Assembly: GCF_000023965.1 (NCBI RefSeq)
Contig: NC_013202.1
Coordinates: 2,880,001 to 2,912,000 of the forward strand
DNA length: 32,000 bases
Direction of reading: 5' to 3'
From: Halomicrobium mukohataei DSM 12286
Lineage (GTDB): Archaea > Halobacteriota > Halobacteria > Halobacteriales > Haloarculaceae
In this document: one piece after another, positions 18,981 through 24,553 of the stretch
How the letters are laid out: every line of letters starts with the position of its first letter
Numbering within the stretch: position 1 is the stretch's first letter
Notes under the pieces: generated by a model
Seen by the model: the letters and a program-made list of their open reading frames with translations, nothing else
Databases searched by the model: none
What the model was told of the DNA's origin: nothing
Translations under genes and position numbers: made by a program

Positions 18981-19067
18981 TCATACGGAAAGTTGTAGGT
19001 CTTTACCAGATCGACCGCACGCCGTCGTGCGGTCGACTGGGTAAACGCCTACAACCGTCCGTATCAC
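18981..19067. repeat. Hairpin repeat element, copy B (87 nt; same termini as A/C, different self-complementary core)
   Basis: The first 19 nt and last 20 nt closely match copy C (tcatacggaa.gttgt... / ...acaaccgtccgtatcac). The core taccagatcgaccgcacg / cgtgcggtcgactgggta is itself an inverted repeat. Confidence 0.65.
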
Positions 19068-19353
19068 AGAACGATTCGAAGTCGTTGGCACCGGCACCAC
19101 CGGCGATATCCCGGAGCGTCCCGATCGGAACCTCATCGTGTAACGGGACCGTCACCTGTCGGCGATCGTCCTCGCAGGGGACGACGATCACCTCGTCGCA
19201 CTCGCCGTAGCTGTCGCGGACGGTGCAGGTGTAGGACCCGTCGTCGTGGACTGCCTCGACGGTGGTGAGTTCGCGCTCCGAGCATCTACGAGTCGTGTTT
19301 GTCGGCGGACGTGAAATGTCTGCGAGACGTATCCGGCGACGGTGACGGGTCAT
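19003..19353 (-). CDS. HicA-like (YcfA family) toxin homologue, orphan and possibly degraded
   Basis: The C-terminal half RRQVTVPLHDEVPIGTLRDIAGGAGANDFESFC matches the conserved HicA block (tvP.H...l..GTLr.I...aG) as I remember the family. The only in-frame ATG (19351-19353) lies in the left terminus of repeat copy C and the stop (19003-19005) lies inside copy B. No HicB-like partner is adjacent. Confidence 0.45.
   Translation of the reverse strand: MTRHRRRIRLADISRPPTNTTRRCSERELTTVEAVHDDGSYTCTVRDSYGECDEVIVVPCEDDRRQVTVPLHDEVPIGTLRDIAGGAGANDFESFCDTDGCRRLPSRPHDGVRSIW
19207..19287. repeat. 81-bp direct repeat, copy 1 (inside the HicA-like ORF)
   Basis: 72/81 identical (hand count) to 21061-21141, in the same orientation. 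Confidence 0.85.
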
Positions 19354-20931: not shown

Positions 20932-21156
20932 CTACTCGCCGACCGCTTCCTCGATGATCTCGATTTCCTCGTCGGTGAGCCCGTACAGTTCGTAGACGAT
21001 CTCGTCGATCAGATCGTCCGTCTTCTCGATCTTCGCCTCCAGTTCTGCGGCGCGCTCGTCGTAGTTGTCGCGGACGGTGCAGGTGTAGGGCCCGCCGTCG
21101 TGGACCCTGTCGACCGTGGTGAGTTTGCGCTCCGAGCATCTCGGGGCTTCGTTCAT
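20932..21156 (-). pseudogene. Chimeric remnant: HicA-like N-terminal fragment fused to the C-terminal tail of a restriction-modification methyltransferase
   Basis: 74-aa ORF from the ATG at 21154-21156. MNEAPRCSERKLTTVDRVHDGGPYTCTVRDNY is paralogous to the HicA-like ORF (the 81-bp repeat). Similarity stops at about 21061, and the rest (RAAELEAKIEKTDDLIDEIVYELYGLTDEEIEIIEEAVGE) is the characteristic extreme C-terminus of type IIG/type I/BREX-type N6-adenine methyltransferases. Confidence 0.45.
21061..21141. repeat. 81-bp direct repeat, copy 2
   Basis: 72/81 identical to 19207-19287. Confidence 0.85.
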
Positions 21157-21237
21157 CGGTGTTGGGCAAGTGTCTATTGCCCACGGATGCCACCGGAGAG
21201 CGTCGACTGGCAGCAAGCCAACGCCGCCAGGGCCGAC

Positions 21238-22581
21238 TCAGTCGAGGATTTCTCTGAGGATATATTCGATTTTCTGGTCGACCTCGGAGGCCTGAAGAAT
21301 CTTGATCGACCGCTGCTCGTCGATGGGTGCCGTCTCGTCGTCTGGTAGGTCCTGAACCACGAGTACGCCGTTCGATCCGTTTCCGAACATACTCTCGTCG
21401 TCGTGGACGAGCGTTCCGTTCTGGCGAAGAAAGGCGAGATACTCCAGTGTCTCTGAGATCCCTCGTTGGATCGTCTCAGGGCGTTTCGAGTGTTTGACTT
21501 CCGTGATGAGATACTCGTTCGAGTTCTCCGACTGAACTTCCAGTACGATAACGTCTGGACGGCCAGTTGCACTTCGGAACGTTCTGTTTCGGAAGTAGCT
21601 GTCGGCGACCGCTCGTGCCTCCCGCTCGATCCGCTCTGTCCGTGAGAGCGCCTTTGATGGCTTCTCTGATACGTCCGATTCGAACGACACACCGCGGTCA
21701 CGAGCGGAGTTGTCGTGGTACAGGACGATATCATCGCCGTTCGTCGACAGGCGAGCGACCTCTTGTGAACCAGACGTGATTGTCTGTAGCTCGAAATTCT
21801 CGTCTGTCATACGCTCCACGGCTGCGATGTAACGGAAGAGAACGAATAGTTCGAACAGCGTCTCGTCGTCGTCAGGCGTGATCGCTGTGTCGGCTAGAAG
21901 GTTCGTAATTGCCTCTGGCTCACCAGCGAGTGTCCGCTGGTATTCTTCGATCAGTGCTGCAGCCTCACGGTAGATTTCGCTGCGGGACTGGGCTGCCGTC
22001 TGGAGCATTCGATCCGTCGGCTCGTACACTTCTGGCCGGCGGATTCGACGGACGTGTACGTTTCTCTCGACGACTTCACGCATCGTTTCGACCAGATCTG
22101 TACTCTCTTTCCATCGTTCTGTTACCCAGTCGTACTCTCGTTCGAAGTACGGTTGGCAGTCCTGTAGCGTCTCGTGGACGAGCGCGAGTAGTCGTTTGAG
22201 AACGACGTTCTCGTCGATGTCGTAGTTCTCGGTCCGGTTTTCACAGACGAACAACGAGCGATCACGAGGATTTCGAGCGTATCGCTCTCGCACAGTGCCC
22301 GCCCAGTCGATCCGACCTTCCACGGCACCGCGAGTAGTCGTCGAGACGTTTTCGGTCTGTGTTTTGATGCTTCGCAATCGTTTTGGTAGCCGTTCCACGA
22401 AGTCGACGACTGCCGGCTTCAACACGAAGTGAAGTCGGACGAGCGTTTCGTAGTCGTCGAACCGGTCTGCGAACCCATCTGGTGCAATCTCTTGGACGAG
22501 ATGGCGCTCGGGAAACGACCCGTGCATCACGTACGCGAGGATGTCTTCGGACAGTTGCTCAAGCAGGGCGTCCCTATCCAT
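21238..22581 (-). CDS. mcrC: McrC-like subunit with C-terminal PD-(D/E)xK nuclease motif
   Basis: 447 aa, with an 8-nt overlap onto the upstream AAA+ gene. It has the motif GRPDVIVLEV-x10-YLITEVKHS (PD...E-x-K, about 21493-21561). Upstream blocks (YDIDENVVLKRLL, LFELFVLFRYI) resemble the McrC/DUF2357 N-terminal region. GC content is clearly lower than in the flanks. Confidence 0.7.
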   Translation of the reverse strand: MDRDALLEQLSEDILAYVMHGSFPERHLVQEIAPDGFADRFDDYETLVRLHFVLKPAVVDFVERLPKRLRSIKTQTENVSTTTRGAVEGRIDWAGTVRERYARNPRDRSLFVCENRTENYDIDENVVLKRLLALVHETLQDCQPYFEREYDWVTERWKESTDLVETMREVVERNVHVRRIRRPEVYEPTDRMLQTAAQSRSEIYREAAALIEEYQRTLAGEPEAITNLLADTAITPDDDETLFELFVLFRYIAAVERMTDENFELQTITSGSQEVARLSTNGDDIVLYHDNSARDRGVSFESDVSEKPSKALSRTERIEREARAVADSYFRNRTFRSATGRPDVIVLEVQSENSNEYLITEVKHSKRPETIQRGISETLEYLAFLRQNGTLVHDDESMFGNGSNGVLVVQDLPDDETAPIDEQRSIKILQASEVDQKIEYILREILD

Positions 22582-24166
22582 CAGGTCTCACCTGCAACAC
22601 GTCACTCGCGACAGATCGAAGTCGAGACGAGTCGATTGCATCGATCTCGGCGAGCCGAGCGATGACAGCCTCACGCTTTCTGACACCCTCTAACTGCGGG
22701 AAGACGTAGCTGAGAACGGCCTGAGTAACGACACGATCACGCTGAGCGGGTGGTGTCCCTCGTACGTGAGAGAGCATGTCTCGGACGATTGCCGGCCCGA
22801 TCTTCCGTTCGTCCGCCGCGTTGTTCATGACGAACCAGACATCTCCGATTGCAGCGACGAGATCGTCCGCGACATCGAGGTCCCAAACGTCGGCATACGT
22901 TCGAACAAGTTGGCGACGCGCGTCGTCGTCCTCGGGAACGGTCGGGGCGTCGACGTAGACGAACGCGAACCGGCGCATGAACGCGTACGACATCTCGTAC
23001 AACGACGTTTTGTCGTAGCTGTTCATCGTCGCAAAGATCCGCCAAGACGACGGCATCAGGTACTGGTGCGGAGGAAGATCGCTCTTCTCGGTTTCAGATC
23101 CGGGCCGGATATCGATCTGTGAACCTTCCCTCGTGAACGGAAGAGAGATACCCTGTCCCGATAGCAGCGTGAATAGTTGGCCGAACGACTTGTCGATGTC
23201 CGAGCGGTTGATCTCGTCGATAACGAGCAGGTCGTTGCGCTGTTGCTCATCACGTTTGAAACAGTGCAACACCTGTCCTGGTTCAAACGAGAGATCGTCA
23301 CCACCCTCTTCGCTCGGCATGTATCCGCCGACGGTCTCGAACGTCGACCAGTCTGCTGTGGCCGTAGTCGTCTGGTAGCCAGTGTAAAAATCGGTCTCTG
23401 CTTCAGCAAGGTATCCAGCGACACGGCGAGCAATTTCTGTTTTACCGGTGCCGGGTGGACCAGTGAGAATAATGTGTTTTCCGGCGTTCAACGCATCTTC
23501 CAGTTCTCCGAGAAGTTCGGTAACTCGGTCCTCGTGGTCCTCGCCTGATGGGAAGTGCAGTCCATCGAGAATCGAATCTGGCAGTTCGAATTCCGGCTGG
23601 CTATCTACGTCGATCCGAGCGGTGGTTGTATCGGAGCGCGTTTGCTCTACCGCACTATCGTCTTCCGTTCGGTCACCGTAGACGAAGGACTCGATCGATC
23701 CGTACTTCCCTCTGAGACCGCCGATTCCCATCTCGTTTAGCGGGGAGAATCCCATCGGGTAGTCGATGTCGTAGCCAGCTAACCCGTGTACTTCCGACGA
23801 ATCGACGCCGAGTTCGACGGGTTCGTCGAGATAGATAACACAGAGCCAGGGGCTCCCCTCCTCGTAGTTCGGCCAGACATCTTTTGCCAACGGTTCGTTT
23901 CGTTCCGTGCCAAGAACTTTGGCAGCGTATTCGTACGTGCCGTCACGGTAGAACAAGAGAAAGTCGCCCGCTTCGATGTTGTTCCAGGTGCCCTCGATAG
24001 ATTGTTTGGTCCCCCACAGGCGTACTGGATCGTTATCGAGCGTTCGATCGGTGAACCGCTCAATGCGTTCTGCGGCGATACCGTCACGAACAGTCCGCTG
24101 GAAGTTCTCCTGTGCAGCGCTGTTTGCAATCGGGGCCCTAAACACACCCGGCCCGTCGTACGTCAT
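22574..24166 (-). CDS. mcrB: McrB-like AAA+ NTPase with N-terminal PUA/EVE-like domain
   Basis: 530 aa. Walker A ILTGPPGTGKT (about 23438-23461), McrB-type Walker B LLVIDEINRSDIDKSFGQLFTLLS (about 23201-23230), and ATMNSYD (NxxD) followed by a MRRF block. The first 125 aa or so (VRLWGTKQSIEGTWNNIEAGDFLLFYRDGTYEYAAKVLG...PWLCVIYLDEPVEL) look like a PUA-superfamily (EVE/ASCH/YTH-like) barrel. Confidence 0.85.
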   Translation of the reverse strand: MTYDGPGVFRAPIANSAAQENFQRTVRDGIAAERIERFTDRTLDNDPVRLWGTKQSIEGTWNNIEAGDFLLFYRDGTYEYAAKVLGTERNEPLAKDVWPNYEEGSPWLCVIYLDEPVELGVDSSEVHGLAGYDIDYPMGFSPLNEMGIGGLRGKYGSIESFVYGDRTEDDSAVEQTRSDTTTARIDVDSQPEFELPDSILDGLHFPSGEDHEDRVTELLGELEDALNAGKHIILTGPPGTGKTEIARRVAGYLAEAETDFYTGYQTTTATADWSTFETVGGYMPSEEGGDDLSFEPGQVLHCFKRDEQQRNDLLVIDEINRSDIDKSFGQLFTLLSGQGISLPFTREGSQIDIRPGSETEKSDLPPHQYLMPSSWRIFATMNSYDKTSLYEMSYAFMRRFAFVYVDAPTVPEDDDARRQLVRTYADVWDLDVADDLVAAIGDVWFVMNNAADERKIGPAIVRDMLSHVRGTPPAQRDRVVTQAVLSYVFPQLEGVRKREAVIARLAEIDAIDSSRLRSVASDVLQVRPDG

Positions 24167-24190
24167 GCTGTCTCCCAGTCAGTGAGTGCC

Positions 24191-24200
24191 AATATAAGTA
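24191..24200 (-). promoter_or_regulatory. TATA-like box (minus strand TACTTATATT) for the mcrBC-like operon
   Basis: AT-rich decamer centred about 29 nt upstream of the ATG at 24166, consistent with a leaderless transcript. Confidence 0.35.
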
Positions 24201-24253
24201 GGGGGAACCGGCAGGGCGATAGTTCATCAGTCGGGAGGAATCGAACCCGTGGT

Positions 24254-24478
24254 ATGGAACTCCAACGACACTCCACAGCGGACTGTCGCCACTGCGGAGA
24301 GCGCATCTGGTACGGGGTGAAAGCAGAAAGTACGTGTTGGAAAGTCTTCTGTCAGTGTCTCACAGGCTGTGGCCGTGAGTGGCGGGCAGATCGAATCAGT
24401 CGGTCGACAGTGGACTCCCTCGACGACGTGTATCGACAGGCCGAACGGCAGTGCGAGCGCGTTTTCGCAACAGACTGA
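24254..24478 (+). CDS. Small Cys-rich (putative zinc-binding) protein, 74 aa
   Basis: Internal ATG of a longer track ORF: MELQRHSTADCRHCGERIWYGVKAESTCWKVFCQCLTGCGREW..., with CxxC followed by C-x4-CxC-x3-C. It is divergent from the McrB-like gene, within the lower-GC patch. No family recognised. Confidence 0.35.
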   Translation: MELQRHSTADCRHCGERIWYGVKAESTCWKVFCQCLTGCGREWRADRISRSTVDSLDDVYRQAERQCERVFATD

Positions 24479-24553
24479 CGCTATTCGACCCACAACGGCA
24501 GTCTCCGAGAGACGATCGGCAACAGTAATCAGGCGTGCCCACTTCCGAAGCGG

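Follow-up and report, generated by a model that had tools for sequence, protein, structure and literature searches.

A two-gene module on the minus strand of Halomicrobium mukohataei DSM 12286 is read here as a horizontally acquired, McrBC-type, modification-dependent (type IV) restriction system, an interpretation that, taken with the mechanism proposed below, is given a probability of about 80%. The module lies in a window of 32,000 nucleotides (contig NC_013202.1, positions 2,880,001 to 2,912,000), which is the whole stretch of DNA that was analysed and to which all coordinates refer. Its two genes are:

22574–24166, minus strand: McrB-like nucleoside triphosphatase (NTPase) gene, 530 residues, with an N-terminal YTH/PUA-like reader, a linker and a McrB-type AAA+ module.
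21238–22581, minus strand: partner gene, probably coding a divergent McrC-like protein, 447 residues, in which a helical N-terminal half is followed by a C-terminal PD-(D/E)xK nuclease.

The module represents no new kind of defence system but a diverged form of one already known. The first-pass annotation of this DNA had described it as a variant of a known family rather than a new class, in agreement with the results obtained here. Particular to the case are a large haloarchaeal/archaeal clade whose McrC is missed by curated models, a linked gene for a zinc-ribbon protein and a clean exchange with a type IIG gene. The findings do not alter what is understood of the working of McrBC systems.

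By its motifs and profile matches the 530-residue protein is a member of the McrB branch of AAA+ proteins. The features that place it there are listed below, A2 being the alignment, also used as a profile, of 32 sequences of the NTPase family, and EcMcrB and TgMcrB the McrB proteins of Escherichia coli and Thermococcus gammatolerans:

22574–23569, minus strand: AAA+ (McrB GTPase-type) module, residues ~200–530, with motifs that are invariant in A2 and align to EcMcrB and TgMcrB.
23438–23461, minus strand: Walker A motif GPPGTGKT, residues 236–243.
23201–23230, minus strand: Walker B motif LLVIDEINRS, residues 313–322.
23012–23026, minus strand: NxxD motif MNSYD, residues 381–385.
22967–22975, minus strand: RRF motif, R398-R399-F400.

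Residues G236-T243, D317, E318, N320 and R321 are invariant in the 32 homologs. The same is true of N382 and D385, which align to the MNTAD of EcMcrB and TgMcrB, and of R398-R399-F400, which align with the RRRF of these two proteins; the trans-acting arginine pair of TgMcrB is Arg425 and Arg426 (PMC7680126). In McrB the asparagine of NxxD serves as an analogue of sensor 1. The three blocks GPPGTGKT, LLVIDEINRS and MNSYD, named as McrB hallmarks in the first-pass annotation, are all present, with their motif residues invariant, and McrB is the top family in both NCBIfam and the PDB. The protein matches Pfam AAA_5 at 6.8e-15, a profile search that had been proposed from the outset, and its best NCBIfam model is that of E. 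coli McrB (3e-11; next family 3e-5). EcMcrB and TgMcrB are its best solved relatives in a single-sequence search of the PDB. When the A2 profile is searched against the same database the matches are TgMcrB (2.4e-19), EcMcrB (2.9e-18) and, as the best protein outside the McrB family, one at 2.9e-6. The TgMcrB match is composed of three colinear segments, which are the N-terminal domain, the Walker A region and the stretch from Walker B to the sensor. Comparison with EcMcrB by hhalign gives a probability of 99.0% (E 5.4e-18). Since the NxxD signature is intact, GTP is the nucleotide expected to be used, and the AAA+ module would form hexamers and hydrolyse it.

Public records name the NTPase "MoxR family ATPase" or "AAA family ATPase" and the partner "hypothetical protein". 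These names, together with the failure of the partner to match any curated family model, would fit the absence of a defence system, the pair being then a MoxR-type AAA+ chaperone and an unrelated protein. Such an explanation is extremely improbable. In the search of the PDB with A2 no other AAA+ family comes within 12 orders of magnitude of McrB, the N-terminus of the NTPase is a modified-base reader, the nuclease motif of the partner is invariant, and the cassette has taken the place of a restriction-modification (RM) gene and behaves like mobile DNA. The annotation as MoxR ATPase was rejected on the invariance of the McrB-specific NxxD and RRF motifs and on the McrB-specific profile scores. 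A widespread haloarchaeal gene pair that is labelled MoxR/AAA ATPase and hypothetical protein gains in this way a concrete, testable function.

The N-terminal region of the NTPase forms the reader domain:

23672–24166, minus strand: reader domain, a PUA-superfamily barrel, residues 1–165, assigned by AlphaFold, Foldseek and profile search.

The N-terminus, which carries WGTK...IEAGDFLLFYRDGTYEY, had been suspected to be a PUA-superfamily domain of EVE/ASCH/YTH type. A comparison of its predicted structure with EVE, YTH and ASCH domains, as had been suggested together with that proposal, recovers a PUA-like fold and narrows it to the YTH-like domain of TgMcrB. The AlphaFold model of residues 1–172, built from 23 homologs, has a mean predicted local distance difference test score (pLDDT) of 87.5. 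Its top Foldseek matches are the N-terminal YTH-like domain of TgMcrB in 6p0f and 6p0g (E 1.8e-7 and 8.8e-7, TM 0.66–0.67), followed by MJECL36 at 1.9e-4 and by ASCH, YTH, THYN1/EVE and VcaM4I at 4e-3 to 4e-2, with probabilities of up to 1.0. The A3 reader profile retrieves 6p0f from the PDB by hmmsearch at 4.5e-4, and the full-length profile finds this segment again. Seven aromatic residues of the domain are invariant (W51, W61, F72, Y73, Y78, W98 and W107), of which W51 aligns with TgMcrB W53. Modelling and searches together support that the first ~165 residues of the NTPase fold as a PUA-superfamily domain whose nearest known relative is the N-terminal reader of TgMcrB. Because this relative adopts a YTH fold and is reported to target N6-methyladenine (6mA) in DNA (PMC7680126, PMC7544203), 6mA is by homology the most likely target of the haloarchaeal reader, which would flip the modified base into an aromatic pocket. 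YTH-NTPase fusions are listed among the expected 6mA-dependent type IV systems (PMC11037411). If 6mA is the target, the system would matter for transformation barriers in haloarchaeal genetics.

The YTH-like fold also brings RNA into consideration. Eukaryotic YTH domains read N6-methyladenosine (m6A) in RNA (PMC11037411), and the YTH-like domains of the McrB homologs of CoCoNuT systems were proposed to be readers of methylated RNA (PMC10542128). A CoCoNuT-like system, in which the domain senses methylated tRNA, rRNA or mRNA and the response acts on translation, is highly improbable here. GTPases of the CoCoNuT branch have a shortened NxD signature (PMC10542128), unlike the invariant NxxD of the present NTPase, and HEPN, cold-shock, coiled-coil and Hsp70-like parts are absent from the pair according to Pfam and the partner model. 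TgMcrB's N-terminal domain has little affinity for RNA (PMC7544203), and the PD-ExK catalytic residues of the partner are intact.

The second protein of the module was compared with McrC by use of a narrow alignment of 32 partner sequences (A1), a broader one of 50 partner relatives at 22–55% identity (A5) and an alignment of 35 E. coli-type McrC sequences (A6), the E. coli protein itself being termed EcMcrC. The features concerned are:

22177–22329, minus strand: most conserved N-terminal motif of the partner, GAVEGRIDW...FVCENRTENYDIDENVVLKRLL, residues 85–135, aligned with RGRI...NRIIK of EcMcrC (residues 70–116).
21982–21984, minus strand: codon of partner R200, candidate GTPase-stimulating basic residue, nearly invariant and aligned with EcMcrC Lys157 in the hhalign comparison of the N-terminal halves.
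21493–21558, minus strand: PD...ExK nuclease motif, P342-D343...E361-V-K363, invariant in A1 and A5.

A PD...E-x-K motif near the C-terminus, as in McrC, had been noticed in the first-pass annotation. The motif stands, P342, D343, E361 and K363 of GRPD(343)...E361-V-K363 being invariant in all sequences of both partner alignments. The assignment to McrC is weaker than was then assumed, hhalign being the only comparison to return it, at E-values of 1e-4 to 1e-3. The predicted structure of the partner has a helical N-terminal half, a beta-hairpin and then an alpha/beta nuclease fold in which D343 and E361/K363 lie on consecutive beta-strands. This is the domain order described for McrC (PMC7680126). 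The narrow alignment A1 scores E 0.052 against the single EcMcrC sequence, a comparison that is useful only with broader profiles. When A5 is compared with A6 the alignments are colinear, with E 7.4e-4 for the full length (probability 26%), 1.3e-4 for the N-terminal halves (53%) and 9.6e-4 for the C-terminal halves (22%); these are single targeted comparisons, in which E equals P. In the C-terminal halves D343 aligns with EcMcrC D244 and E361-x-K363 with D257-x-K259. In the N-terminal halves the only invariant residues of each family, G89 and N125 in A5 and G74 and N106 in A6, fall on each other. Two homologs of the partner are already named McrC in UniRef.

The partner thus probably works like McrC, of which the alignments suggest it to be a very diverged member. 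In EcMcrC the basic residue Lys157 stimulates the GTPase of McrB, as does Arg263 in TgMcrC (PMC7680126). R200 of the partner is, by its alignment and conservation, a candidate for this role. The helical N-terminal half would enter the NTPase ring and stimulate hydrolysis, and the C-terminal PD-ExK domain (D343, E361, K363) would cut the DNA.

The partner family is large. An exhaustive profile search (E <= 1e-3) yielded 828 representative clusters at 50% identity, and the size given at 90% identity is 626 clusters. The protein is 100% identical to one recorded for Halomicrobium sp. ZPS1 and H. mukohataei. Note that NCBI holds both the 447-residue product and an N-terminally shortened version of 281 residues (P0116); the start of the latter was rejected and the long form taken as correct because residues 1–166 are conserved in distant relatives.

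The arrangement of the two genes is itself conserved. The elements that connect and precede them are:

22574–22581, minus strand: overlap of the NTPase and partner genes, ATGGATAG, 8 nt, read from the sequence, with potential for translational coupling.
24197–24191, minus strand: TATA-like box TTATATT, centred ~28 nt upstream of the NTPase ATG.

The partner ATG (22581–22579) precedes the NTPase stop codon TAG (22576–22574), which bears out, in coordinates and in letters, the overlap of two minus-strand open reading frames (ORFs) reported in the first-pass annotation. The AT-rich box, then proposed to be suited to a leaderless transcript, has likewise held up: a TATA-like or AT-rich box is found at about the same spacing in most of 45 related loci. 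The position of TTATATT and its recurrence in relatives fit an archaeal leaderless promoter and support a leaderless transcript of the NTPase gene. Both genes would be co-transcribed from this TATA promoter and their translation coupled through the 8-nt overlap, which recurs in Haloplanus and Halobacterium loci. The partner is found directly downstream of the NTPase in 83 of 83 loci examined, often with the same overlap; these loci include 80 metagenomic contigs as well as genomes of Haloplanus and Halobacterium whose flanks are unrelated. Partner relatives at 24–28% identity also follow AAA_5 NTPases, which have there other reader domains such as EVE, so that reader domains seem to be swapped within the cassette clade. 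Distant relatives adjoin type IIG, BstXI and PLD-DUF87 genes. In two distant metagenomic relatives (L141 2054–5008 and L170 2790–6008) the NTPases have 984 and 1072 residues, respectively, and the partners keep a length of ~450 residues. The L170 NTPase shows a weak Pfam EVE match together with DUF8425 and DUF8426; that of L141 looks, by eye, as if it had two PUA-like segments. No relative of the partner was found in a viral contig collection, and a viral origin of the cassette was not supported.

The cassette was acquired by horizontal transfer and alternates with a type IIG gene at one chromosomal site:

21062–24536, no strand: horizontally acquired segment of 3475 bp that replaces the type IIG RM gene of Halomicrobium katesii, delimited by blastn collinearity and distinct in GC content.

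The genome of H. katesii DSM 19301, used to set these boundaries, is 98% identical to the window and collinear with it up to 21061 and again from 24537. At the site of the cassette (L016 3713–7953) it has instead a gene coding an Eco57I/MmeI-type IIG RM protein of 1392 residues. The low-GC island described in the first-pass annotation coincides with the exchanged segment, whose GC content is 0.569 against 0.680 elsewhere; values are 0.55–0.58 between ~21000 and 24500 and 0.66–0.72 in the flanks. GC at third codon positions (GC3) is 0.61–0.65 for the island genes versus 0.89–0.93 for host genes. The flanks are made of housekeeping genes (SMC, ScpA, GatB, ThyA, DHFR, TopA, an AI-2E transporter, PcrB and a NUDIX protein), and replacement likely took place by homologous recombination through these conserved regions. 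H. mukohataei and strain ZPS1 on one side and H. katesii on the other offer a natural comparison of modification-dependent and modification-writing defence within 98% identical flanks.

Several results weigh against the interpretation as a McrBC system with a 6mA reader. The NTPase scores 42.7 bits with the NCBIfam McrB equivalog model, far under its cut-off of 637 bits, and is for this reason considered a member of the McrB family and not an equivalog. A PADLOC run, part of the checks proposed in the first-pass annotation, returned no type IV model for the NTPase and nothing for the partner. The McrC and DUF2357 profiles, which it had likewise put forward, gave no better outcome: the partner has no match in Pfam (McrBC PF10117 and DUF2357 PF09823 included) or in NCBIfam. 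Among the 50 partner relatives one matches DUF2357 (8.7e-4), none matches PF10117 and none matches any PADLOC model. Sequence searches of the PDB with the partner alone, with A1 and with A5 gave only chance matches, a uridylyltransferase and a beta-amylase. Foldseek with the full-length partner model (pLDDT 69) against the PDB retrieved nothing at E < 0.4 and no McrC chain (6ut7, 6hz4), its weak matches being the PD-ExK nucleases MspJI, Dna2, PaqCI and Cap4. Finally, the hhalign probabilities between partner and McrC, quoted above, reach only 22–53%. The miss by Foldseek was not counted against homology with McrC because the model is of low confidence over residues 73–120, the presumed stalk, and because TgMcrC and EcMcrC are themselves only 13% identical (PMC7680126), a divergence that makes weak similarity of the partner to McrC expected. 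Since the Pfam, NCBIfam and PADLOC profiles miss the nuclease subunit entirely, the number of type IV systems in Halobacteria is probably underestimated.

The remaining points against concern the nature of the target. The proposal of 6mA leans on an identity of only ~18% between the reader and TgMcrB's N-terminal domain, prokaryotic YTH-like domains are hard to tell from EVE (PMC7641849), and PUA-family domains are also known to read 5-methylcytosine (5mC), 5-hydroxymethylcytosine (5hmC) or N4-methylcytosine (4mC). EVE is a reader of 5mC and 5hmC, and for ASCH only a role as reader of 4mC has experimental support (PMC11037411). The Foldseek matches that come after TgMcrB include ASCH, the 5mC-DNA-bound THYN1/EVE and VcaM4I. 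Recognition of a modified cytosine (4mC, 5mC or 5hmC), or of some other hypermodified base, in place of 6mA by a machine of the same McrBC type is on balance unlikely. Against this, the 6mA-preferring domain of TgMcrB is the best structural match by a wide difference (1.8e-7 versus 1.9e-4 or weaker) and the sole significant sequence match (4.5e-4). Methylation of CTAG to 4mC is widespread in Halobacteria, and a general 4mC reader would there risk self-restriction.

Among characterised systems the McrBC of T. gammatolerans (6p0f, 6p0g, 6ut5, 6ut7), whose structure is solved (PMC7680126), is among the closest to the H. mukohataei module. Both are archaeal and combine a YTH/PUA-like reader with a McrB AAA+ module having NxxD, followed downstream by a partner made of a helical domain and a PD-(D/E)xK nuclease. 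They differ in that the reader sequences are highly divergent, that no similarity of the partner to TgMcrC is detectable by Foldseek or sequence, that the haloarchaeal clade has the zinc-ribbon gene and that the host is a mesophilic halophile. E. coli EcoKMcrBC has a homologous AAA+ motor (hhalign 99%) with the same signature motifs. Its McrC family aligns weakly and colinearly with the partner, including the catalytic D...DxK and the position of K157, and its genes are also adjacent, with a one-base overlap. In contrast, the N-terminus of EcMcrB is a DUF3578 domain reading 4mC, 5mC and 5hmC (PMC7680126, PMC7544203), where the Halomicrobium NTPase has a PUA-like domain, and EcMcrC matches PF10117 at 2e-27, a family to which the haloarchaeal partner has no match.

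Fusions of YTH or EVE domains to McrB were already described (PMC7641849, PMC7680126). Bell et al. (2020) catalogued EVE-, YTH- and ASCH-McrB fusions, among them McrB-like GTPases joined to homologs of the TgMcrB YTH domain (PMC7641849); the class is defined by a PUA-superfamily reader and a McrB-like GTPase paired with a PD-(D/E)xK nuclease, as here. The terms "Halobacteria" and "haloarchaea" were not found in that paper, which was not searched for zinc ribbons or McrC divergence. HhiV4I comes from the same host group and likely follows the same logic of reader-based restriction of adenine-methylated invaders (PMC11037411). It is of a type consisting of a single-chain HNH nuclease with no NTPase motor, whereas the Halomicrobium system is predicted to be of the two-subunit, NTP-driven McrBC type.

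A third gene is associated with the pair:

24254–24478, plus strand: four-cysteine zinc-ribbon gene, 74 residues, divergent from the NTPase gene, likely accessory or regulatory.

Its start codon is separated from that of the NTPase gene by 87 nt. Homologs adjoin the cassette in 40 of the 45 loci that have a complete YTH-type NTPase gene, upstream and divergent in 36 of them and downstream and convergent in the other 4. The gene is part of the swapped segment, and the H. katesii allele lacks it. Residues C11, C14, E25, W29 and C35 are invariant in the family and C39 is nearly so. The protein matched no Pfam family; 4 of 27 members gave weak matches to Brz, a small regulator of haloarchaea (best 2e-3). 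The encoded protein travels with the cassette and may be its third component or its regulator. Regulation would be our best guess for its role, at low confidence.

A third small gene is a feature shared with the three-gene relatives LlaI, LlaJI and BsuMI, which also combine a McrB-like motor and a McrC-like nuclease with an extra gene. As described (bioRxiv 10.64898/2026.08.31.748284; PMC7680126), such non-canonical McrBC homologs are site-specific, the extra gene coding a DNA-binding module, and they are accompanied by methyltransferases. A sequence-specific, modification-independent system of this kind, dependent on a cognate methyltransferase to protect its own DNA, is quite improbable for H. 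mukohataei. No methyltransferase gene is present in the swapped segment or adjoining the cassette in the loci examined. The N-terminal domain of the NTPase is a modified-base reader of PUA/YTH type rather than a sequence-specific domain such as B3, and the extra gene of the Halomicrobium cassette codes a divergently transcribed zinc ribbon that, with 74 residues, is too small for a DNA-binding module of the LlaI.R1 type.

Within the interpretation as a modification-dependent McrBC system, a more specific version can be formulated tentatively, and is considered doubtful. The cassette would be a distinct three-component variant in which a YTH-reader McrB and a McrC too diverged for any curated model or defence-finder profile are joined by a dedicated zinc ribbon controlling expression or activity of the nuclease, and it would be functionally incompatible with RM systems that write 6mA. 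Such incompatibility would explain the replacement of the type IIG enzyme at the same site. The occurrence at one site of a 6mA-writing type IIG gene and of a putative 6mA-dependent nuclease gene suggests it by way of speculation.

The left junction of the island retains a trace of the type IIG allele:

20932–21216, minus strand: chimeric remnant ORF, in which the end of the type IIG gene is joined to a copied piece of a HicA-like gene.

The type IIG part, made of the final 43 codons of that gene, occupies 20932–21061 and matches the C-terminus of the PADLOC model REase_MTase_IIG at 3.1e-8; the upstream part is the ~94-bp HicA-like fragment copy at 21048–21141. Gene callers annotate this ORF as a 74-residue protein. 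The fragment is one copy of a direct repeat of ~94 bp with 88% identity, whose other copy (19194–19289) lies inside a HicA-like ORF of 116 residues (19003–19353, minus strand; Pfam HicA_toxin 2.5e-4). The copy at 21048–21141 overlaps the left island junction by 14 bp and may be the trace of a recombination event. Site-specific integration was also considered and is not supported: the window contains no tRNA, the flanking genes examined include no member of a Pfam recombinase family, and no direct or inverted repeat beyond chance borders the island. In H. katesii the central part of the type IIG gene (L016 4000–5500) has a GC content of 41–54% versus ~65% in the rest of the gene, which suggests that an internal segment was recently exchanged.

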